64,000 nucleotides of DNA from an uncultured Chlamydiae bacterium (lineage in GTDB: Bacteria; Chlamydiota; Chlamydiia; Chlamydiales; SM23-39). The notes under the pieces are model-generated. The model did not search any database. It was not told where the DNA came from and saw only the letters and a list, made by a program, of their open reading frames with translations. Numbering within the stretch: the first letter of the stretch is position 1; the number at the start of each line of letters is the position of its first letter. Location of the stretch: NCBI GenBank assembly GCA_963828125.1, contig CAWHDP010000002.1, forward strand, positions 1,504,001 to 1,568,000, in the 5' to 3' direction. Positions 2,542-15,907 of the stretch are shown here, piece by piece. Both the position numbers and the translations under genes were made by a program.

Positions 2542-2682
2542 ATGCAACTTTTTGAATGTCTCAAAAGCATCCCCGACCCACGTAAAAAGCGCGGGATTCG
2601 TCCGGTGGCGGCCTTGGCTACAGCTTCTAAGAAAATTGAAATTCTTGCACATCAATTTGGGGGTTTGTTATACCGAAAATGA
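2542..2682 (+). pseudogene. ISAs1-family transposase N-terminal remnant
   Basis: SD AAGGAAG followed by MQLFECLKSIPDPRKKRGIR, the typical IPDPR..RG.R start; similarity is lost after about 20 codons. Confidence 0.65.
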
Positions 2683-2702
2683 CCCAAGAAAGGGGGGGAT
2701 CT

Positions 2703-5000
2703 ATGAGTCTTGTAAGATGGGTCGCGTTGAGCGGGGCCTTCGCAGCTATGATCACAGGTGGAACCGTCATCGCCTCAAATAAAGGCGTGGTGCTGCTGGG
2801 CGGAGAAAACAATACGAATCGAAGCGGCCCTCCCATCGCTTACCTCTTCTCGGCGAATGGGCAGGCGTCCCTTTTGCCTCCTGCCGCTTTTCCCGATGGC
2901 GGATATATATATAGCGTTGCGATTACTGATAGTGGGGCTGGCCTCATCGGAGGGATGAATTTCGGCGGCGTCCAGCCTCCCATCGCCTATCTCCTCTCTC
3001 CGAGTGGAACTATAACATCGCTTTTAGATGCATCGGCGTTCCCAAACGGCGGATTCATCTATAGCGTGGCTATGGCGCAAACGGGCGAAGGGATCATCGG
3101 CGGACAGAATAGCGCCGGCCCCCCAATCGCCTCTTTCGTCTCCTCAAATGGAACGTTGACTCCCATCGTATTGGAGGGAGATTCTATGTATTCCTCATCT
3201 GCATTGATGAATAACGTTGCTATCGCGAGCAGCGGCATTGGAATCCTTGGAGGACAGAGCGACGTCTCTCCGACTCCTCCGCTCTCTTATTCAGTGGCTT
3301 CCGATGCGGTTGCATCGTTTTTGGGACCCCCTGAACCCGATTTCCCGAGCGGTGCAGGGATCCTCAGCGTCTCCATTGCCGAGAATGGCGCTGCCCTGCT
3401 AGGGGGAATTAATTATGGCAGCGGCCCTCCAATATTGTATCGGCTCTATCCAGATGGAACTTTTACCAATCTTTCCACTGCAACCGGCCTCCCTGCGTCA
3501 GGATATATTAACAGCGTTTCAATTGCAGAAAATGGGATGGGTCTCATCGGAGGAACGGGGCCTACTTACCCGATCGCCTGCTTTGTCGCGCCAGATGGAG
3601 CGCTCACCGTTCTTGGAAGTGGAATCTTTCCTGCCGGAAGCATTTACAGTGTTGCCATCAACAATAGCTGTGCGGGAATCATCGGCGGACAGAGTGGCGC
3701 CGGGGAACAACCCCCGATCGCCTATCTCGTAGCTCCAAACGGCGCTCTTACAACTCTTGGCGATGGGGTTTTCCCTCCCAGTGGGGTCATCAATAGCGTA
3801 GCAATCAGTGAAAGTGGGGTCGGATTGATCGGAGGACAGAACAATCCCAATGGGAGCGGCTCTGCCATTGCTTATCTGGTGGCTCCGAACGGAACCCTCA
3901 CATCTCTGAGCTCTAATGGCGCCTTTTCCAGCAGCTCAACGGTCTCTAGCGTCGCCCTCTCCGATGCCATCGCCCCCCAATCCTTCGGCCCCTACAGCAG
4001 CCTGGCCAACGCCCTTTTCGCCCTCACCCATACCCTCGAAGATCATTACACAGGACGGAAAACTTTCTTCAAAAACACAAATGGCGCGCAAATCGCCGAC
4101 CTCGATTTGCTCGCAGGCCGCCGGCTGATTCCCCCGAAAAAGTCACCTCCCCCAAAACCCTGCCCCATCTGGAGCGTTTGGGGAGGCCCTTTTGGCGCCT
4201 TGATTTACCAAGACGCAAAGAAGGCCATACCAGCCTTCAGCGATGAAATAGCGGGTGTAATTGCGGCTGCCGAGTACAATGGGATCAAAAACGTCGCAAT
4301 CGGCGGCGGTCTCGCCTACGCTTTCACGTTCGTCAATTACAAAGAGAGCGTCGGCCACGCCTCGATCAACCAAGAATATGCCCTCATCTACGCCAATTTC
4401 AATCGCCCCTATTTCTTTTTCAATGCGGCTCTCTGGGGCGGCCTCTATCAACTCAGCAATAAGCGGCATACCCTCGGCTTCATCACCTCCACTTCAAACC
4501 CTAAGGGTTGGCTCTTATCGCCCCACGTAGAGTTGAGTACGCCTTTTCTTGTCAAAGGAGACTGGTTTGGCGTCGATCCATTTGCCATGGTCGATTGGGC
4601 CAATAGCTGGCAAGATTCGTTCCGCGAAAAAGGGAGATCGGGACTCAACATCTCCCTCAATAGCCAATACTCCTCCCTCCTCCGCAGCGAAATAGGCGTC
4701 CGCTTCTATGAAACCCTCAAATATGGCTGGGGTTGTCTCAAAATCGAGGAAAAAGCAAGCTACGTCAATAAAGCGCCTTTCCACACAGATCCAGGAACAG
4801 CCGCTTTCATAGGCGCCTTTTCTTCATTTGGCGTTGAGACCTTTAGTAGCTCCGTCCAAAATTTGGGTTTAGCGCAAATCGCATTCCACTTCACCCCTTC
4901 CCATCCGAAGTATCCCTATGGCTCAATCGACTATCAGGGCGAGTTCGGCTCTTCCTTTCAATCGCACCTTCTCGTGTTAGAGCTCGGACAATCTTTTTAA
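2703..5000 (+). CDS. Autotransporter with ~50-aa repeat passenger and C-terminal beta-barrel
   Basis: Hydrophobic N-terminus; repeats SVAI...G.GLIGG...PIAYLV.P.G.LT.L; C-terminal ~290 aa of amphipathic strands ending in F (LELGQSF). Confidence 0.85.
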   Translation: MSLVRWVALSGAFAAMITGGTVIASNKGVVLLGGENNTNRSGPPIAYLFSANGQASLLPPAAFPDGGYIYSVAITDSGAGLIGGMNFGGVQPPIAYLLSPSGTITSLLDASAFPNGGFIYSVAMAQTGEGIIGGQNSAGPPIASFVSSNGTLTPIVLEGDSMYSSSALMNNVAIASSGIGILGGQSDVSPTPPLSYSVASDAVASFLGPPEPDFPSGAGILSVSIAENGAALLGGINYGSGPPILYRLYPDGTFTNLSTATGLPASGYINSVSIAENGMGLIGGTGPTYPIACFVAPDGALTVLGSGIFPAGSIYSVAINNSCAGIIGGQSGAGEQPPIAYLVAPNGALTTLGDGVFPPSGVINSVAISESGVGLIGGQNNPNGSGSAIAYLVAPNGTLTSLSSNGAFSSSSTVSSVALSDAIAPQSFGPYSSLANALFALTHTLEDHYTGRKTFFKNTNGAQIADLDLLAGRRLIPPKKSPPPKPCPIWSVWGGPFGALIYQDAKKAIPAFSDEIAGVIAAAEYNGIKNVAIGGGLAYAFTFVNYKESVGHASINQEYALIYANFNRPYFFFNAALWGGLYQLSNKRHTLGFITSTSNPKGWLLSPHVELSTPFLVKGDWFGVDPFAMVDWANSWQDSFREKGRSGLNISLNSQYSSLLRSEIGVRFYETLKYGWGCLKIEEKASYVNKAPFHTDPGTAAFIGAFSSFGVETFSSSVQNLGLAQIAFHFTPSHPKYPYGSIDYQGEFGSSFQSHLLVLELGQSF

Positions 5001-5115: not shown

Positions 5116-5586
5116 ATGGATGGAAAACCGAAAGAAGGTTCAGTGGAGTCGCTCGTCGATGCTTTGCGTCTCCTCCTGATGGGAAGGAAAGCCAGCACTC
5201 AAGAGGCGATCTGTTCCGCCTTGGAAAAATTGGGATACGAAATCAACCAAACTAAGGTCTCTAGATTGCTCCGCAAGATCGGCGCGATCAAGATCGAAAA
5301 CGAACACGGGCAAACAGTCTATTCGCTCCCTCGCGAACCCGCTCCCCCCTCAATGAATACTCAAATTAGAGATTTGATCGTCAATATAGTGGCCAATGAG
5401 GCTTTAGTCGTTATTTTCACAAGCCCCGGATCTGCCTCAATGGTCGCGCGGGTTCTCGATTACAACCAGATCACCACCGAAATTCTCGGAACCATTGCTG
5501 GAGACGACACGATCTTTGTCGCCCCCAAAACAATCAAAGATATCCGAAAATTAACGGAAGAAATCAAGGGCTTACTCCAAAAATAG
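5116..5586 (+). CDS. argR: Arginine repressor
   Basis: TQEAI...L...GYEINQTKVSRLL winged-HTH; GTIAGDDTIFV arginine-binding motif. Confidence 0.95.
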   Translation: MDGKPKEGSVESLVDALRLLLMGRKASTQEAICSALEKLGYEINQTKVSRLLRKIGAIKIENEHGQTVYSLPREPAPPSMNTQIRDLIVNIVANEALVVIFTSPGSASMVARVLDYNQITTEILGTIAGDDTIFVAPKTIKDIRKLTEEIKGLLQK

Positions 5587-7014
5587 CGTTTCCTCAACTG
5601 TAGACAGCAGCTTCTCCTTCTCTATCAGCCAAGCAGCGACTTTTTCAGCTTTGATCGCATGCAAAGCAAACTGCCTATTGACCTGATTAGACGAGGTGCC
5701 CCCTTGGCTATCCCTTGTATTGACAATCCTTCTCAAATCGAGCATGGCCGCCACATCTTCAGCAAAAAGGGGAGAAAAATCTTGCAGTTCTCGCAAAGAG
5801 AGTTCTTCCAGTTTCCGATCGCTATCCAAACAATATCGGACAACCTTCCCCACAATCGCGTGCGCCTCCCTAAATGGAACGCCTTTCAAAGAGAGATAAT
5901 CGGCAAGTTCAGTAGCATTTAAAAGCCCCTCCTGAGTGGCCTGGAGCATTTTATCCGGCCGGACATGAAGGGTTTCTATCACTCCCCGGTAAATGCAGAG
6001 CGATGATTCAAGAGTCTTTACAGTATCAAAAAGGGGCTCTTTGTCTTCTTGCATATCTTTATTGTAGGCAAGAGGAAGCCCCTTCAGCAGGGTCAAAGTG
6101 GAGAATAGAGAACCATACACTCTTCCTGTCTTCCCTCTGACAAGTTCGGGTACGTCGGGATTTTTCTTCTGCGGCATAATACTGCTCCCAGTACAATAAG
6201 CGTCGTCCAGTTCGATAAAAGCAAACTCTTGACTGCACCAGAGGATCATCTCTTCGCTCAGGCGAGAAAGATGAGCCATGATCAGCGCCCCATGCGCTAG
6301 AAACTCGACGCAAAAATCGCGGTCGCTCACTGCATCGATACTATTTTCATAAAGAGAGTCAAATTTGAGAAGATCGGCCACCAGCCCTCGATCGATCGGC
6401 AGCCCTGTCCCCGCCAACGCACAAGCTCCAAGGGGCAGTTGATTGATGCGAGGCCAGCTCCCGATCAAACGATCCATATCCCGCCCCAAGCTCGCCGCAT
6501 AAGCCAATAGATGGTGGGCAAAAAGGATCGGTTGGGCCCGCTGAAGATGGGTGTATCCAGGCATCATCACATCGATGTTCTCCTTGGCTTTTTGCACCAG
6601 CGCTTCGGATAAGCCTTGCAAGAGAGAGACGACCCTTACGACTTTAGCCCTTAAATAAAGATGGAGATCCAATGCGACCTGATCGTTCCGGCTTCTCGCC
6701 GTATGCACTTTCCCAGCCAAAGGGCCGATGAGCGCCTTCAGCTCCTGCTCTATCTTCATATGGATATCTTCATCTGCCGCTGCAAAGGAGACGGCCCCTT
6801 GAGAAAGACGGTCTCTGATTTCGATGAGCCCTTTTTTGATTTTTTGGGCCTCTTCAAGGGTCAAAATCCCAACAGCTCCCAGCATTTGCACATGGGCCAC
6901 CCCCCCCAGAATGTCCAGACTGGCCAGTTCGCAATCAAAAAAGATCGAAGCGGTAAACGCCTCGACCTGAGACTGTGTCGCTTTCGTGAATCTTCCGTCC
7001 CAGGCTTTAGCCAT
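5572..7014 (-). CDS. argH: Argininosuccinate lyase
   Basis: WDGRF, HTARSRNDQVA, GSSIMPQKKNPD. Confidence 0.97.
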   Translation of the reverse strand: MAKAWDGRFTKATQSQVEAFTASIFFDCELASLDILGGVAHVQMLGAVGILTLEEAQKIKKGLIEIRDRLSQGAVSFAAADEDIHMKIEQELKALIGPLAGKVHTARSRNDQVALDLHLYLRAKVVRVVSLLQGLSEALVQKAKENIDVMMPGYTHLQRAQPILFAHHLLAYAASLGRDMDRLIGSWPRINQLPLGACALAGTGLPIDRGLVADLLKFDSLYENSIDAVSDRDFCVEFLAHGALIMAHLSRLSEEMILWCSQEFAFIELDDAYCTGSSIMPQKKNPDVPELVRGKTGRVYGSLFSTLTLLKGLPLAYNKDMQEDKEPLFDTVKTLESSLCIYRGVIETLHVRPDKMLQATQEGLLNATELADYLSLKGVPFREAHAIVGKVVRYCLDSDRKLEELSLRELQDFSPLFAEDVAAMLDLRRIVNTRDSQGGTSSNQVNRQFALHAIKAEKVAAWLIEKEKLLSTVEETLFLE

Positions 7015-8221
7015 ACTGGGCTCCCGCAATCAACCTTAAAGCGTTTAATTTGATAAACCCTTTAGCGTCTGTCTGATCATACCCAAGGGTCTCCTCCATG
7101 CTCGCCATTTGCGGCTGATAGAGAGAATAAGGCGAACTACGCCCAGTCACAATCACATTTCCTTTATAGAGAGTAAGAAAAACCTTGCCAGCCACCCTCT
7201 TCTGACTCTGGTGAACCGCTGCCATGAGAAAATCCATTTCAGGACTAAACCAAAATCCATTGTAGATGATCTGCGCGATTTTGGGAGCGAGGGTCTCTTT
7301 CAGAAGAATCACCTCCCTATCCAGAGTCATCCCTTCCAAATCCAAATGGGCTTTGAGGAGAATCGTCCCGCCAGGAGTCTCATACGCTCCACGCGATTTC
7401 ATCCCAACAAATCGACTTTCCACAAGATCCACTCTCCCAATCCCATGCCTTCCTCCTACCTCATTGAGATATTTGAACAGTTCCACAGAACCTACGATCT
7501 TTGCCCCTGTTCCCATCTCTTCCACCGAAATCGGATTTCCCCCTTGAAACTCAATCGCGATTTTCATCGCTTCATCGGGGGTATTTTCTAGCGAAACCGT
7601 CTTGAGAAACATCTCCTCCGAAGGAGTGTACATCGGGTCTTCCAGTTTTCCTCCCTCAAAACTGGTGTGCATCAGATTCGCATCAATGCTGTACGGCTTT
7701 TCCAAAGTAGAGGTGACAGAAATGCCATGGGCGCTCGCGTATTTTAACAGATCGCCCCTTCCCGAAAATTGCGCTAAAAATTCCCGATCTTTCCAGGGGC
7801 TAATGATCTCTGCGTGAGGAAGGTGCGTCAAAAGGGTCAGCTCAAAGCGCACCTGATCATTTCCTTTCCCCGTCGCCCCGTGTGCAAAGGATGCGATCTT
7901 TTCCCGTTCCGCAAGCTCCACTAATTTCTTCGCAATCAAAGGCCTTGCCAAAGCGGTGCCTAACAGATATTTCCCCTCATAAACAGCATGCGCCTTCAGA
8001 GAAGGAAAAATAAAATCTTCCACAAATTCTTTTTGCAAATTGGCAATATGAACCTCCGACGCCCCTACGGCAAAAGCCTTCTTCTTCGCCGCCTCTAAAT
8101 CCTCCTCTTGCCCCACATCAGCAATGAAACAGACGACATCGTAACCTTTCGTTGTCAGCCACTTCAAAATGACCGACGTATCGAGCCCGCCGCTATAGGC
8201 TAAAATCACTTTCTTCTTCAT
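7007..8221 (-). CDS. argG: Argininosuccinate synthase
   Basis: [35 protein letters not shown]. Confidence 0.97.
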
Positions 8222-11200
8222 TTTTTCCCTCCCATAAGAGCCATGATTAACGCTTTTTGTACATGCAACCGATTTTCACTTTGTTGAAAAATGACCGATT
8301 GGGGTGAATCGGGCAACGTTTCGCTCACCTCTTTTCCCCTGACCATCGGCATACAATGCATGAATATAGCCTCCGGTTTTGCAAGCGCCATGAGCTCTTC
8401 ATTGACTTGAAAACCGGCAAAAAGCTCCTCGTTCGCACCGTTTTCAAACCCCATGCTGGTCCAAACATCTGTATACACTGCGTGAGCGTCTAGAACCGCT
8501 ATATGAGGCGAAGTGTGCTCAGTGATCGATCCCCCTCTTCTAAAAGCCCTCGCTAAAATTTCCGCTTTAGGACCCCGTCCAACGGGACAGCAATAGTGCA
8601 GATGGACGCCCATCATCGGCGCCATGAGGAGAAGACTGTGGAGAATATTGTTCCCGTCCCCGATATAAGTCACTTTAACCCCTTCAAGAGAGCCAAATGT
8701 TTCCTGCAAAGTGAGGAGATCGGCCAAAATCTGGCAAGGATGGTGATCATCCGAAAGGGCGTTGATGATAGGAATAGAGGATACTTTCCCCATGCGGCTT
8801 AAATCTTCGTCGCTATGAGTCCGGATCATAATCCCGTCGCAATACCCCGCAAGCACTCTGACCCAATCTTCAGGTTCCTCTTTCTTTCGATCGCCGCTTA
8901 CACTCTCTATCACCGTACCGCCCAATTCTTGCATCGCCACTGTGAAACTAAATCGGGTCCGCAAAGAGGGTTTCTCGAACAGCATGGCTAAGTGCTTTCC
9001 CTTGAGCGCCAGAGCCGTTTGACCCCCTTTCCTTAAATGTTTCAACTCGCTGGCCAGGTTGAGTAAAGATCGAATTTCGCTAGAGGTGAGCTCCTCTCCG
9101 GTAATGAGATGTTTAGTCGAATGGATCCATTGATTGAGAGATTGCACGCTATGCTCCGATCTGATTATGAATGCTTTTAATAAAGCTGTTGCAGCGCTTG
9201 CCGTCGTGGCATGGCAAATACGCCGTGTGATGGCAAGACGCCTTAACTCTGTCTCCCCTTTGCCGATTGCAATGATCAGTTCAATATCCTTTGCGTCCGG
9301 ATCGAAAGCCTGGCAAGGGATGCCGTGAGTCTGAAGGAACTCTAAAGTGGGAGAGGTTGCATATAAAGTCAGAGGCAGCGCTAAGAGATCGCGCGCCATC
9401 TCAATGCTTATACCACAGCCGAGAAGGGCCCCGCTACCCGGTTTGGGAAGCGGATACCCGGAAGCAATTTGCGCCTTTGCATAGCTTGTAGCAAAATCGC
9501 TATCTAGCCCCATCACCTCTCCTGTCGATTTCATTTCGGGACCCAAAATCGAGTCCACATTGTCAAATTTAGAAAACGGGAAAACAGCCTCCTTGACAGC
9601 AAAATAGGGGAGTACAGGAGGCTCAACATACCCTTGCTCTTTCAAAGAAGTTCCCAATAGACAACGGGTCGCTATTTTGACGAGATCGATCCCAGTCGCT
9701 TTTGAGGTGAAGGGGGCGGTTCGGGAGGCTCTAGGATTGACCTCCAAGACGTAAATCCCGTTGTTCTGAATGGCAAATTGAATATTGAGGAGCCCAACAA
9801 AATGGAGGCCCAAAGCGATCTGCTTCGTCTGTTCCAAAAGCTCTTTTTGCAAGGAGGCAGATAAACTAAAGGGAGGGAGAGAGCAGGCAGAGTCTCCCGA
9901 ATGGATGCCCGCCGGCTCAACATGCTCTAAAATCCCCGGAACATACACGTCGGATCCATCGGATATCGCATCGATATCGACCTCTGTCGCATCCATTAAA
10001 AACCGCTCTATCAGCACCGGCTTTTCAGCAGAGGCTGAAAAAGCCTCCAAAAGACAGCTTTCTAATTCGCCCTCCTGGTTGACAATAGCCATCGCTCGCC
10101 CCCCCAAAACAAAAGAGGGTCTGACAATCAGAGGATAGCCCATCTGCTTCCCAGCAGACAACCCCTCCTCTAATGAATGGACGATCAAGTTGTCCGGCTG
10201 TTTGAGGCCCAAAGTATTTAAAAATTGCTTGAAACTAGCCCGATCTTCTGTTTTTTCAATCCATTCGGACGTCATGCCAAGGAGCGGCACTCCAGCTTTT
10301 ACAAGAGGACCTGTCAAGTTTAAAGGAGTCTGCCCCCCATACTGTACAATCACGCCAAGAGGTTTTTCTATATCGACAATCGCCAAAATATCTTCCGCAG
10401 TCAGTGGAGAGCAGTAGAGCTTGTCTGCGCAATCGTAATCGGTCGAGACCGTTTCCGGATTGCAGTTGACGATGATCGTCTCATAGCCCTCTTCCTTCAA
10501 GGCTTGAATCGCATGCACGCAGCTATAATCAAATTCGATCCCCTGGCCAATTCGGGAAGGTCCGCTCCCTAAAATCATCATCTTAGGGAGATCTGTAGGA
10601 TAGGCCTCGCACTCCTCTTCATAGCTGGAGTAAAGATAAGCGATCGATGTGGCAAATTCAGCAGCGCAAGAATCGATCCGCTTAAACCCAGGGACAATCC
10701 CCCATTCTCCTCTTTTCGCTCTGATCTCCTCTTCGCTACAGCCAGAAAAAATACCGATTTGCACGTCGGAAAAACCCAATTTCTTCAAAGCGCGCAGATC
10801 TTCTTTATCCTCTATTTTTTTCTCCGCCTGGACAAGCTCCTCGATTTGGTGAAGAAACCAAGGATCGATCTGGGTCAAATCGTTGACTTGGGCCAAAGAC
10901 ATCCCCTCTCGAAAAGCATCAAAAATCGCCCAAAGCCTAAAGGGACCCGGAATGTCCAAAGACCGGTGTTTAGGAATCGATCCAACCTCCATGCTTCTCA
11001 TCCCTTTAAGAAGAGCCTCCTGAAACGTCCTTCCGATCGCCATCGCCTCCCCCACAGAGCGCATCTGAGTCCCCAATTTTTCCTCGCAACCTTTGAACTT
11101 CTCAAAATTAAAACGGGGTATTTTAACCACCACATAATCCAGGGTCGGCTCAAAAGAGGCCGGAATCTGATTCCCCGTTAATTCGCTCGAAAGCTCCGGC

Positions 11201-12198
11201 AAGGTGTAACCCACGGCCAGCTTCGCCGCGACTTTAGCAATCGGAAAACCGGTCGCTTTAGAGGCCAAAGCAGACGATCTGGAGACTCGGGGGTTCATTT
11301 CGATCACAACCATTCTCCCGTTTTTCGGATCTATTCCGAATTGCACATTCGACCCGCCCGTCTCTACGCCAATCGCTCGTAAAATCGAAAAAGAGGCGTC
11401 CCTCATAGTTTGATATTCTTTATCGGTCAATGTTTGGGCAGGAGCTACTGTGATCGAATCCCCCGTATGAATCCCTAAAGGATCGATATTTTCAATAGAG
11501 CAGACAATGATGCAGTTATCGCTTCGATCCCGCACAACCTCCATTTCGAATTCTTTCCAACCCACCAAAGCCTCATCAAGAAGAATTTCTTGGCCTCGCG
11601 GAGTTTGATGTAAAGCAGCTTTACATAAAGAAAAAAACTCCTCTTCCGTGTGGGCAATCCCGCTCCCGCTTCCCCCTAAAATAAAAGAGGGGCGTACAAT
11701 AATGGGCAGTCCCAAAGCTCCCAAAACCTCCTTCGCCTCTTCGATATTTTTAGCAGATCCCGACTTTGGTAAATCCAACCCTAGAGTCTGAATGGTTTGT
11801 CGAAACAAAGAGCGATCTTCGGCAAGCTCAATGGCCTCAGGCGTTACGCCAAGAAGTTCCACTCCTAGAGCCGCAAGACAGCCGCTTTTTGCCAGCTCGA
11901 GAGCCACATTGAGCGCCGTTTGCCCCCCCATAGTCGGCAAGATCGCGCAAGGTTTTTCTTTTTCAATGACTTTCATCACAAATTCTTTCGTAATCGGCTC
12001 AATGTAGACGACGTCCGCCACCGATAGATCGGTCATGATCGTCGCTGGATTTGAATTGATGAGAACGACCTTGTAGCCCTCTTCGCGCAGCGCAATACAA
12101 GCTTGGGTCCCCGCGTAATCGAATTCGCAAGCCTGCCCGATCACAATCGGACCCGATCCGATGAGAAGGATTTTTTGAATATCAGTTCGCTTTGGCAT
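8218..12198 (-). CDS. carB: Carbamoyl-phosphate synthase large subunit fused to C-terminal ornithine carbamoyltransferase (CarB-ArgF)
   Basis: Residues 1 to ~1025 are CarB (MPKRTDI..., GQACEFDY, two ATP-grasp halves with [10 protein letters not shown] and EVNPRASRT). The last ~300 aa are OTCase ([35 protein letters not shown]). Confidence 0.95.
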
Positions 12199-13282
12199 GT
12201 TCGTTTTCCATTAATCTGACAAATTGGTCGAATAAAACCTGTAATTCATGAGGTCCTGGACTTGCTTCCGGATGTCCCTGAAAGCTAAAGGCCGGTTTGT
12301 CCTTTCTCGCAATGCCAGCCACGCTTTTGTCAAAAAGAGAGCGGTGCGTCACCATCAAACAAGGAGGAACCGTTTTTTCATCGACCGCAAAACCGTGGTT
12401 TTGGCTGCTGATCCATACTTTGCCTGTAGCAATCTCCAAAATCGGATGATTAGCTCCATGATGGCCCTGTTCCATTTTCACCGTTTTTGCCCCGCTAGCG
12501 AGCGCCAGTAGCTGATGCCCTAAACAAATGCCAAATATAGGAATCAGGGACTCAAGGAGAATCCGGATCGTTTGAATCGCACCATAGCAAGCAGCCGGAT
12601 CGCCCGGACCGTTCGATAAAAATATCCCATCCGGCTTGAGCTTTAAGATAGCGTCGGCCGTCGCATTGGGAGGGACGACCGTTAGACGACAGCCCGAGGC
12701 GACGAGTTTTTGCAAAATAGCGTTTTTGATTCCAAAATCAAGGACAACAACGTGAAGAGAAGCATCTTGAACTCCCCATTCGGATAAGAAGTCGGAGGCG
12801 ACTTCCTGGGTCATGTTTTTCCCCTCTAAGCCAGAAAAACCCTTGGCTTGGCGCAAAGCGAAATCGACGTCGACTTTTCCTCCCATAATACAGGCATTTA
12901 AGCTCCCCTTCGTCCTTAAGATATGGGTCAATTTCCGAGTGTCAATCTCCGATAAAGCCACCACATTCTGGTTTTTAAGGAGACTTTGCAAATCGCCCGT
13001 CGCCCGCCAATTGCTAGGCCACTGAGCCAGCTTGCGCATGACGACCCCGCCCGCCCAAATTTGATCCGACTCCCTATCGTCCTCATTGACGCCAACATTC
13101 CCAATATGGGGATAAGTAAAACTGATGATCTGTCCCGCATAGGAAGGATCGGTTAAAATCTCTTGATACCCGGTCATTGCCGTATTGAAGACGAGCTCCC
13201 CGACAAAAACCCCCTCCGCCCCGACCGATTCCCCCCAAAGAAGAGTTCCGTCCTCAAGCGCTAATAATCCGTCCTTTTCCAT
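12182..13282 (-). CDS. carA: Carbamoyl-phosphate synthase small subunit
   Basis: [46 protein letters not shown]. Confidence 0.97.
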
Positions 13283-13289
13283 CTTTGGC

Positions 13290-13469
13290 TCAAATTCTCG
13301 GATAAGTAAAGCTAACCGCCGGCGGCGAGTAAAAAAAAGCGCTCAAGGGCTCTAACTGACCTACCGGACAGTGATTCAGCACCACCTCTCCTATAGTGAT
13401 TCCTCCGGCTCCTAATGATTCTATCCAAAAAAGCATCCCGTCAGGGGTTATCGATTTTTCGTTTTTCAT
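13290..13469 (-). CDS. 59-aa leader ORF, diverged paralogue of the CarA N-terminus
   Basis: SD AAGGAGAG; MKNEKSITPDGMLFWIESLGAGGITIGEVVLNHCPVGQLEPLSAFFYSPPAVSFTYPRI*; 23/50 gapless identity to CarA residues 11-60. Confidence 0.75.
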   Translation of the reverse strand: MKNEKSITPDGMLFWIESLGAGGITIGEVVLNHCPVGQLEPLSAFFYSPPAVSFTYPRI

Positions 13470-13495
13470 AAACTCTCCTTGTTGTTATGCGATTT

Positions 13496-13525
13496 ATTAT
13501 ACACGGAAATGAATATTTATTCAAC
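13496..13525 (-). promoter_or_regulatory. Sigma66/70 promoter of the car-arg operon overlapped by an ARG box
   Basis: Minus strand TTGAAT (13524-13519), 17 bp, TATAAT (13501-13496). ARG box AATGAATATTTATTCAAC at 13508-13525. Confidence 0.8.
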
Positions 13526-13592
13526 AAATAGATTCGATGTGAACGGCAAGCTCCTTGCTGTTAGCATGTTAAATATAAATATGGTGAGTTTT

Positions 13593-13623
13593 ATTGACTA
13601 AATATTCATTTTAAATATATAAT
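13593..13623 (+). promoter_or_regulatory. argCJBD promoter overlapped by an ARG box
   Basis: TTGACT (13594-13599), 18 bp, TATAAT (13618-13623). ARG box ATTGACTAAATATTCATT at 13593-13610. Confidence 0.75.
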
Positions 13624-13643
13624 GAACGGCAACAACAGAGGAA

Positions 13644-14696
13644 ATGATGATTAAAGTAGGGGTTGCGGGAGCCACTGGATATGTAGGGATTGAATTGATT
13701 CGGATTCTTGCCGGGCATCCCCGAGTTGAGCTTGTCTATGTCGCAACTCAATCCCACATAAATGAGGCGCTGAAGACGGTATACCCGCACCTTCAAAGGA
13801 TCGTCGACATGAACTGCTCTCCGTTGGATGCGGCTGAGATGGCAAACCAGTGCGACGTTGTTTTTACGGCTCTTCCCCATGGGATTGCATTAAGCCTTGC
13901 TGAGCCGATCCTCAAAGCGGGGAAAAAACTCATTGATCTTGGAGCCGATTTTCGGCTGAAAAACCGCGCGCTTTATGAACAGTGGTATGGGAAACCCTCG
14001 GCCTCTTCCGAACAGCTCGAATCTGCCGTCTATGGCCTTCCAGAAATTATATCGCCAAAGATCATCCAAGGATCTGATCTGATTGCAAATCCTGGGTGCT
14101 ACCCCACCTGCATCGCCCTCGGAGCCAGTCCTCCGATCTTTCATAAGATCGTAAAACTAGAGGGGATGATTTTCGATGCTAAATCGGGAGTTTCAGGCTC
14201 TGGGAAAAGCCTTTCTCTCAATTCCCATTTTTGTGAAGTCGCTGAAAATTTTAAAGCCTACGCAATAGCTGGAAGCCATCGCCACACTCCAGAAATCGAA
14301 CAAATTTTAAGCGAGCTCACAAAGACTCCTGTAACGGTCCAATTTACGCCCCATCTCATCCCGATGATCCGGGGACTTTTAGTGACCGGCTATTTCCAGC
14401 TTCAAAAAGAGATCTCTGCAGAGGCCGTTTGGCACATTTATTCACAGTACTATAAGAACAAACCCTTCGTCCGATTATGTCCGCTTGGGACGCTTCCTCA
14501 AACAGCCAATGTCAGAGGGTCTAATTACTGCGATATCGGCCTTGCGCTCGATCTCCGGACGAACACCTTGATTGTCGTCAGCGTGATTGACAATCTTGTC
14601 AAAGGGGCCGCAGGGCAAGCGGTCCAAAATATGAATATCTTGTTTGAACTGCCGGAAACGATGGGGCTCAATCAGCTATGTCCAACTTATCCATGA
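13644..14696 (+). CDS. argC: N-acetyl-gamma-glutamyl-phosphate reductase
   Basis: GATGYVG, IANPGCYPT, HRHTPEI, DNLVKGAAGQAVQN. Confidence 0.97.
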   Translation: MMIKVGVAGATGYVGIELIRILAGHPRVELVYVATQSHINEALKTVYPHLQRIVDMNCSPLDAAEMANQCDVVFTALPHGIALSLAEPILKAGKKLIDLGADFRLKNRALYEQWYGKPSASSEQLESAVYGLPEIISPKIIQGSDLIANPGCYPTCIALGASPPIFHKIVKLEGMIFDAKSGVSGSGKSLSLNSHFCEVAENFKAYAIAGSHRHTPEIEQILSELTKTPVTVQFTPHLIPMIRGLLVTGYFQLQKEISAEAVWHIYSQYYKNKPFVRLCPLGTLPQTANVRGSNYCDIGLALDLRTNTLIVVSVIDNLVKGAAGQAVQNMNILFELPETMGLNQLCPTYP

Positions 14697-15907
14697 AGAA
14701 AAAACATATTGAAGGAGGCATTTCAGCCCCTCTTGGCTTTATGGCCTCCGGGGTGCCCGCAGACTTAAGGGGAAAGGGGGACGTCAAAAAAGACGTCGCC
14801 CTCATTTTCAGCGAAGTCCCTGCCGTAGCTGCCGGCGTCTTTACGAAAAATTCTGTCAAAGCGGCGCCTATTTTGGTGACCCAAGAAGCGATCCAGCAAG
14901 GGCTCTTGCAAGCGATTGTCATCAATAGCCGCAATGCGAACGCCTGCACAGGCCGGCAAGGGATCACAGATGCAAAAGAGATGTGCAAGCTCGCAGCTGA
15001 CGCGTTGCAGATCGATCCGGGACAGGTGGCCGTCAGCAGCACCGGCGTCATTGGGGTTCCCCTCCCGATGACCCGGCTCGCTCCAGGGATTCTGGCCGCC
15101 GCCGCGCATCTGGATAAAAAGGGAAATTCCGATGCAGCGGTTGCGATCATGACTACCGATACCTATCCGAAAGAGCTCGCCCTTCAATTGGAATTGGGGG
15201 GAGCTAGAGTCACGATCGGAGGCGTGGCCAAAGGTTCCGGCATGGTACATCCCGATATGGCGACGATTCTAGGTTTTATCACGACCGACGCGAACATTTC
15301 TCTCAATGCGCTTAAAATGGCTCTAAAACAAGGGAGCGACGACTCCTTTAACATGATCAGCGTCGATGGAGATACGTCGACAAACGACATGGTTCTCGCC
15401 ATGGCCAATGGGCTGGCGGGCAATCCTCAAATCGAGATCGGAACCCCTATTTTTGAAGAATTTTGCGAGGCATTGAAATATGTCCTCATTTTTCTAGCCA
15501 AAGAGGTCGCCCGCGACGGAGAGGGGGCCACTAAGCTTCTAGAAGTGTGCGTACAAGGAGCGAGCTGCGTCGAAGAGGCGAGACTTGCGGCTAGATCCGT
15601 TTGCAGCTCTCTTCTCGTCAAGACAGCTATTTTTGGAAAAGACGCCAATTGGGGACGGATCCTTTGCGCTCTCGGTTATTCAGGAGCCTCTTTTGATCCA
15701 AATCAGGCAGATCTTTATATCGGCAACGTGCAAGTGATGGGGAAAGGGGCGCCCCTTCTTTTTGATGAGGCGGCAGCCTTAGACATCCTCTCCGAATCCC
15801 ACGTATTGGTGACGGCCCATCTCCATGCAGGCAACGCCTCGGCCACAAGTTGGGGATGCGATCTTTCCTACGATTATGTAAAGATCAATGGAGCCTATCG
15901 AACATGA
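14693..15907 (+). CDS. argJ: Glutamate N-acetyltransferase / ornithine acetyltransferase
   Basis: NANACTG, IMTTDT, KGSGMVHPDMATILGF, DGDTSTND, ARDGEGATK; ATGA overlap with argC. Confidence 0.97.
   Translation: MKKKHIEGGISAPLGFMASGVPADLRGKGDVKKDVALIFSEVPAVAAGVFTKNSVKAAPILVTQEAIQQGLLQAIVINSRNANACTGRQGITDAKEMCKLAADALQIDPGQVAVSSTGVIGVPLPMTRLAPGILAAAAHLDKKGNSDAAVAIMTTDTYPKELALQLELGGARVTIGGVAKGSGMVHPDMATILGFITTDANISLNALKMALKQGSDDSFNMISVDGDTSTNDMVLAMANGLAGNPQIEIGTPIFEEFCEALKYVLIFLAKEVARDGEGATKLLEVCVQGASCVEEARLAARSVCSSLLVKTAIFGKDANWGRILCALGYSGASFDPNQADLYIGNVQVMGKGAPLLFDEAAALDILSESHVLVTAHLHAGNASATSWGCDLSYDYVKINGAYRT

Follow-up and report, generated by a model that had tools for sequence, protein, structure and literature searches.

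A short ORF that heads the arginine-type carA operon of an uncultured Chlamydiae bacterium is, judged from its substitution pattern and its relatives, very probably a functional coding gene. It lies in the window, by which we mean the whole stretch of 64,000 nucleotides that was analysed, and it derives, with much divergence, from the beginning of the carA gene that it precedes. Nucleotide comparison traces it to a single old event of partial tandem duplication within a narrow clade, and the pattern of nonsynonymous change indicates that its peptide is under purifying selection in two segments. What is new here is that a leader cistron was born from the 5' end of carA itself; coupled leader cistrons as such are already known. 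The features concerned are listed in Table 1.

Table 1. Features of the arginine operon and of its leader in the window
Feature	Position	Strand	Description
argR	5116..5586	+	arginine repressor; near the operon
argH	5572..7029	-	
argG	7007..8221	-	4-nt overlap of its start with the carB-argF stop
carB-argF in-frame fusion	8218..12198	-	1326 aa; 17-nt overlap with the carA stop
carA	12182..13282	-	366 aa, carbamoyl-phosphate synthase glutamine amidotransferase subunit; Pfam PF00988 and PF00117
Leader-carA gap	13283..13289	-	7 nt, without effective SD; carA ATG at 13282
Leader ORF P0001	13290..13469	-	ATG, 59 codons, then TGA; paralogue of CarA residues 1-60
Leader stop TGA	13292..13290	-	
Leader codons 52-59 (VSFTYPRI)	13293..13316	-	segment under strongest constraint
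Leader codons 32-51	13317..13376	-	neutral in-frame spacer in place of the CarA loop
Leader codons 10-31	13377..13442	-	constrained; predicted strands 2 and 3
Leader SD AAGGAGAG	13480..13473	-	3 nt 5' of the leader ATG
Promoter TTGAAT-17-TATAAT	13496..13524	-	sigma-70-like, leader-carA operon; 10/12 consensus matches, consensus match only
ARG box 1	13508..13525	-	1 mismatch to the ARG-box consensus; overlaps the -35 hexamer of the leader/carA promoter
ARG box 2	13593..13610		2 mismatches to the ARG-box consensus; overlaps the divergent argC promoter
argC promoter TTGACT-18-TATAAT	13594..13623	+	
argC	13644..14696	+	divergent from the leader promoter region; argC-argJ

The initial annotation, made from the sequence alone, had described a duplicated CarA N-terminus at the head of a carA/carB-argF/argG/argH operon, namely a 59-codon ORF with a strong SD, placed between an ARG-box promoter and carA and separated from the latter by 7 nt; the homology, the gene order and the coordinates were all borne out. 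The 16S rRNA tail of this genome carries the canonical anti-SD (found twice) and was used to calculate duplex energies. The 20 nt 5' of the leader ATG gave -8.8 kcal/mol, and among 965 ORF starts called crudely, 13% have an SD at least this strong. As had also been claimed, the carA ATG has no clear SD: the 20 nt upstream gave -3.0 kcal/mol, a value equalled or beaten by 59% of 2000 random 20-mers. The SD of carB is weak as well (-3.3 kcal/mol). SD use is weak throughout the genome (median -4.5 kcal/mol for ORF starts vs -3.6 kcal/mol for random 20-mers), and a poor SD at carA is thus nothing out of the ordinary; carA could initiate alone. No sigma-70-like site was found inside the leader ORF on the same strand and, since the promoter site lies upstream, the predicted mRNA begins with the leader ORF as its first cistron. 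ARG-box matches were as numerous in 4 of 100 shuffles of the window.

An independent DNA copy of this arrangement was found on a metagenome contig of 2253 bp (L121), which carries a divergent argC, ARG boxes, the SD, the leader, TGA, 8 nt, carA and the start of carB. Its leader has 55 codons and is identical to P0125, one of the leader peptides described below, and its CarA is 80% identical to that of the window. Both ARG boxes are kept in L121, with a core (TTGAATAAATATTCA) identical to that of the window; the SD region (CAAGGAGA) is also identical, and the leader regions share identical blocks of 12-14 nucleotides. The duplex energies in L121 were -8.5 kcal/mol for the leader and -3.0 kcal/mol for carA, and the gap is 8 nt, conservation of this short leader-carA distance having been proposed as a check. 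The distance from the leader ATG to the carA ATG is 187 nt in the window (frame +1) and 176 nt in L121 (frame +2); a programmed frameshift joining the leader to CarA was rejected because of this difference in frame relation. Read-through of the stop codon was also rejected, since the leader frame closes 12 codons further on without joining carA.

The derivation of the leader from carA rests on several comparisons. By BLASTP, leader residues 10-59 match CarA residues 11-60 without gaps, with 23/50 identities (47 bits, E 1e-12), exactly as first reported. The Pfam family PF00988 (CPSase_sm_chain) matches the leader with 20.5 bits (E 4.5e-4), under the gathering cut-off of 27 bits, and the leader covers positions 5-54 of the 126 in this profile; as far as the profile match indicates, it is a homologous fragment of PF00988 rather than a complete domain. 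L121 carries the motif GAGAAGAC both 5' of the leader ATG and again between leader and carA; one boundary of the duplicated piece is thereby located inside the SD, and the other follows codon 60. Synonymous sites between the leader and its own carA are saturated (pS 0.78), and the leader shares as few nucleotides with its own carA (81/150) as with the carA of L121 (82/150). The duplication is therefore old and has not been refreshed by conversion; gene conversion holding the leader close to carA was rejected, since any excess similarity to the own carA is absent. Within the window genome, a search with the leader peptide recovered its own ORF and the carA start, and nothing else. We also compared the first 100 residues of 1393 long ORFs with their own 450 upstream bases, and 9 ORFs, carA among them, gave a match; the others were repeat proteins and one divergent paralogue pair, the repeat-protein matches starting mostly from residue 47 onward or involving several repeats within a 2310-aa ORF. 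P0131, a protein of 300 aa whose source is unrelated and apparently rich in GC, contains the CarA N-terminal domain twice in frame, which may reflect a second duplication of the carA start or an assembly artefact.

Including that of the window, seven leader peptides of 55-59 aa were found (P0001, P0003, P0124, P0125, P0126, P0127 and P0133), all gathered by their similarity to the leader, so that decayed copies would escape (ascertainment bias). P0124-P0127 came from a profile-free search of 1.84 billion representatives and P0133 from a profile search; the exact window peptide is present on 8 contigs in public protein sets. One homologue is 78% identical and has been called as a protein of 68 aa from an upstream ATG, its extra residues spanning the conserved SD. 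Two of the seven leaders are annotated with the JGI small-subunit name. CarA proteins 73-86% identical to that of the window are present in the same collections, with the first 60 residues almost invariant, and CarA relatives at 69-71% identity bear the source labels 'Chlamydiae bacterium' and 'Verrucomicrobia bacterium', from which the lineage probably belongs to that superphylum. The contigs of P0133 and of an 81%-identical CarA (P0006) are both 8675 in size, which suggests that the two may be neighbours.

Within the order, the leader was not found elsewhere. A sample of 400 genomes contained 10 others with a carA match at E <= 1e-90 (closest 63-71% identical), and none of these 10 had a leader upstream of carA. 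Among 32 loci from 40 relatives there was no second leader-like match, and genomes of the same genus had only a different carA. A leader profile was run against the 102 other genomes of the window's family (f1) and against 129 genomes of a second family (f7). Everything it hit was the N-terminus of a carA, lying in f1 within frames open for 102-446 aa and in f7 within long open frames. Over the whole set of about 630 genomes of the order besides that of the window, no carA that was found had the leader upstream. The best profile match in f7 (G467) proved to be carA itself. On a contig of this genome (L152, G467:C4, positions 1450-2877), a 475-aa frame continues through carA to the first part of carB, the carA part departing from its relatives near residue 270, and this may be a broken gene or a misassembly. 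A first metagenome scan with two leaders as queries yielded no copy, and L122, one of the two loci from a second metagenome scan, was set aside as an unrelated high-GC carA. Given its confinement to a narrow clade, the leader is dispensable for arginine-type carA operons generally.

The operon itself (window 5572-15907) seems, from the identities of its carA, to have followed a path of its own within this genome, by lateral transfer or by differential loss. The arginine-type carA of the window is 40-43% identical to the carA of the same genus and 63-71% identical to that of family f7; among the matches listed, identity to proteobacterial carA is 48-59%. The window CarA matches the Escherichia coli CarA chains in the PDB with an E value of 1e-132. 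The carB-argF ORF encodes the CPSase large-chain domains followed, from residue 1029, by the OTCase domains. In two relatives (G335 and G131), carB and argF are adjacent but separate (matches to residues 1-1026 and about 1005/1024-1323), and in the other three genomes checked no match to the argF part was found at E <= 1e-30. The single frame of the window may be a recent fusion or a sequencing frameshift; the fusion, if real, would allow carbamoyl phosphate to be channelled straight to ornithine. The overlaps between carA and carB (12182-12198, 17 nt) and between carB-argF and argG (8218-8221, 4 nt) may reflect coupled translation of the whole operon. Just 5' of argR, a 773-aa ORF (2679-5000, plus strand) contains an autotransporter beta-domain (PF03797, E 5.5e-22).

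Selection on the leader was assessed by the Nei-Gojobori method between the window genome (G000) and L121, a single DNA pair with 38 synonymous sites. Neutral sites are saturated between the two (pS of 0.72-0.79 for carA and argC): pS and pN were 0.72 and 0.126 for the whole of carA, 0.82 and 0.029 for its codons 1-60, and 0.79 and 0.185 for 219 codons of argC. For the whole leader, pS was 0.535 and pN 0.296 (Fisher p 0.012), the latter value being higher than that of every 55-codon window of carA (maximum 0.212). The leader is mosaic in this respect. Codons 10-31 (pS 0.49, pN 0.161) and 52-59 (pS 0.353, pN 0.055) show a clear deficit of nonsynonymous change; codons 32-51 have pS 0.761 and pN 0.611, contain no stop, and account for the sole length difference to L121, an in-frame indel of 12 nt, in line with the earlier observation that the CarA loop had been rewritten without stop or frameshift. 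The synonymous divergence of the conserved blocks (0.49 and 0.35) is also lower than the baseline of 0.72-0.79, and by this measure some nucleotide-level constraint is present in them as well.

The alignment of the seven leaders, which extends from end to end, gives the same picture. Thirteen columns are invariant and 12 of these retain the CarA residue; of the 22 columns of residues 10-31, 8 are invariant and 10 near-invariant, residues 52-59 contribute 4 invariant and 2 near-invariant columns, and none of the 20 columns of residues 32-51 is invariant. There are also shared changes specific to the leaders, from Gly to Met/Ile at position 16 and from Val to Leu/Phe at position 19. Absence or frameshifting of the ORF in close relatives, with dN/dS near 1, had been set beforehand among the refuting outcomes; instead, six further leaders were found, with pN far below pS in two segments between the window and L121. 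The finer features singled out in the initial annotation fared unevenly. The single Arg codon of the 59 in the window leader is indeed a penultimate AGA in place of a CarA His, and across the seven leaders there are 1-2 Arg codons per leader; AGA is not a rare codon here, since it makes up 17% of the Arg codons in the window genome, and rare-codon pausing was rejected for the same reason. Of the PP and YP motifs noted before the Arg, YP is kept, within an FTYP that is invariant in 7/7 leaders, and PP is not kept in the relatives. The terminal YPRI is likewise conserved in part: YP in all seven, R in 6/7 with K in the seventh, and a last residue that varies (I, M, S or G). Six of the seven leaders end one residue past the basic residue, and P0126 is four codons longer.

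An AlphaFold2 model of the leader, built from a six-row alignment, was obtained with moderate confidence (mean pLDDT 67.9), with strands at residues 2-8, 11-19, 24-32 and 51-57 and pLDDT below 50 at residues 36-41. In this model, the constrained codons coincide with predicted strands and the free codons with the former CarA loop. Selection on strand-forming stretches around a freed loop makes a folded beta-sheet product the most likely outcome of translation. A Foldseek search of the PDB with the model gave no match at E <= 0.001, and a complex prediction of the leader with CarB residues 1-560, run without controls, had a score of 0.00. At the RNA level, the region folds no better than shuffled sequences (z 0.59; 140 of 200 shuffles fold as well), and Rfam returned no family match, the only row being a chance lncRNA (E 0.83). 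The single terminator-like hairpin on the leader strand (13328..13316) is weak, and the segment that contains it is not kept in L121. The minimum-energy fold contains an 11-pair helix between leader codons 41-44 and carA codons 8-10 that encloses the carA start (arms at about 13338-13349 and 13252-13262, minus strand); by eye, its leader arm is not conserved in L121.

We consider that the best explanation of these data as a whole, to which we give an even chance of being right, is a coupled first cistron that also encodes a selected beta-sheet peptide. The leader would be translated as the first cistron of an ArgR-controlled mRNA, at the 5' end of which it would hold the sole good ribosome-binding site, and ribosomes terminating on it would re-initiate at the SD-poor carA start 7-8 nt further on, on the principle also suggested by the overlaps of carA with carB and of carB-argF with argG. 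As in coupled cistrons, the upstream stop is a few nucleotides from the downstream start (7 nt in the window and 8 nt in L121) and, in both DNA copies, the ribosome-binding site is found on the upstream ORF and no effective one on the downstream gene. The geometry of the coupling leader that was originally proposed thus stands in both copies (SD contrast and gap of 7-8 nt), and the dependence of carA on it is what we infer from that geometry; we lean slightly towards the view that such coupling contributes to carA expression. The product would most likely fold as a small four-stranded beta-sheet protein, made in a fixed ratio to CarA, and may associate with the arginine-specific CPS/OTC enzyme. 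From the conserved segments and the predicted fold, its action in trans as a folded protein is plausible at somewhat less than an even chance. The leader is homologous to one piece of its parent and is under selection on that piece, as would be expected of a microProtein, and this pattern favours the micro-protein alternative of the initial annotation; we put forward only tentatively that it is a bacterial microProtein serving as an extra small subunit or assembly sensor of the arginine-specific CPS-OTC enzyme.

If the leader were purely a coupling device acting in cis, translation up to a stop beside the carA ATG would be what matters and the peptide a functionless by-product. The strong leader SD, the lack of an SD at carA and the gap of 7-8 nt kept in both DNA copies would be accounted for in this way, as would the 20 middle codons, neutral yet open and in frame, and the other junctions of the operon overlap too. 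Such a device nevertheless leaves unexplained why pN is only 0.16 in codons 10-31 and 0.055 in codons 52-59 while neutral sites are saturated, and why the CarA residue is retained in 12 of the 13 invariant columns, and we regard it as unlikely. It is highly improbable that the leader is a non-functional remnant of the tandem duplication that has not yet decayed. The duplication predates the split between the window and L121, at which neutral sites are saturated, and neutral sequence would by now be unrecognisable, whereas the start, the SD, the frame, the stop position and the two segments are kept in 7/7 copies; the points that would fit a remnant are the leader pN (0.296 vs a maximum of 0.212 in 55-codon windows of carA), the absence from most of the order and the Pfam score under the threshold.

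Two further readings place the function in regulation. An arrest peptide sensing arginine, in which high arginine would stall the ribosome at the leader stop and block the carA start, is improbable despite several features in its favour: the leader sits 5' of the gene for the CPS small subunit, a stalled ribosome would cover the carA start, and conservation peaks in FTYP[RK]x, whose basic penultimate residue is specific to the leaders and present in 7/7. However, this C-terminal motif was inherited from the FTYPH of CarA and is not newly evolved, the stop position is loose (four codons further in P0126) and the last residue varies, residues 10-31, which are also constrained, would have left the exit tunnel by the time of termination, AGA is frequent among the Arg codons, and the ArgR boxes already give arginine control. 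Neither feature of a classical attenuation leader of the trp, his or leu type was found, that is, a run of regulating codons or a terminator/antiterminator before the first gene, the latter judged from the mere 7-8 nt that separate the end of the leader from the start of carA, the unconserved hairpin and the folding z of 0.59. The amino-acid sensing suggested in the initial annotation thus found no support, there being no run of Arg codons, no rare codon and no conserved terminator or attenuator, and conservation follows the predicted beta-strands rather than being limited to a C-terminal stretch in the tunnel. We give very little credence to an RNA element in the 5' leader (attenuator, riboswitch or protein-binding site) in which the ORF would be incidental: the reduced synonymous divergence of the conserved blocks (0.49 and 0.35, under the saturated baseline) and the identical blocks of 12-14 nucleotides in the window and L121 are compatible with it, but the region shows neither a folding signal nor an Rfam match, its terminator-like hairpin is in an unconserved segment, and constraint is tighter at nonsynonymous than at synonymous sites, which implicates the peptide.

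Leader elements upstream of carA and coupled upstream ORFs have been described in other bacteria. In Pseudomonas aeruginosa, a leader peptide before carA is described as part of a pyrimidine control by attenuation (PMC4997734), and it resembles the window leader in being a small bacterial ORF between the promoter and carA. The earlier statement that no bacterial equivalent was known must therefore be qualified: a leader peptide before carA does exist, but it belongs to a pyrimidine attenuator and is not CarA-derived, and the window leader has no conserved terminator and derives from CarA. The carA motif RNA, a riboswitch candidate found 5' of carA in beta-proteobacteria (PMC8632094), is also a conserved element directly 5' of carA, replacing part of the promoter control of the E. 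coli type; it is described there as a non-coding hairpin, whereas the constraint on the window leader lies on the peptide and no Rfam match was obtained. The arginine genes of E. coli are reported to show no attenuation (PMC6245113). Translationally coupled upstream cistrons or uORFs acting by termination-reinitiation are known in bacteria (recent sets of examples: PMC13285730 and PMC8092293), and they share with the window leader a small ORF with its own RBS that ends at the weak-RBS start of the main gene on the same transcript; the window leader differs from them in being a diverged copy of the first 60 codons of the main gene, with selection at the peptide level. The open-access literature searched contained no leader derived from the N-terminus of its own downstream gene, nor any mention of this peptide family.

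Two eukaryotic systems offer further points of comparison. The uORF of fungal CPA1/arg-2 encodes the arginine attenuator peptide, of about 24-25 aa and not known to be related to the enzyme, which causes arginine-dependent stalling in eukaryotic scanning. By position, this upstream ORF before the gene for the arginine-specific CPS small subunit is the closest analogue of the window leader; the conservation of the window leader, however, is unlike that of a peptide acting in the tunnel. MicroProteins, a eukaryotic concept, are small single-domain derivatives of larger proteins that bind the partners of the parent. The window leader is alike in being a short paralogue of one structural piece that is kept by selection on that piece. 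It differs in being co-transcribed and probably coupled with its parent carA, with partner binding only inferred, and in having lost the loop that is the most conserved part in CarA.

The usual view of small ORFs in the 5' leaders of bacteria is that they are either regulators indifferent to the peptide or arrest peptides. The origin of the leader described here is datable, since it predates a split at which synonymous sites are saturated, and its mosaic selection, with two strand segments kept, the loop released and the frame maintained, provides a clean natural example of the birth of a leader cistron. ORFs automatically annotated as CarA fragments can thus be independent genes. It is possible that the leader shows a new micro-protein arising from the N-terminus of an enzyme, and if the microProtein reading is true, this would be a case of gene birth by partial duplication of a 5' end, in which a 5' leader was turned into a new protein.
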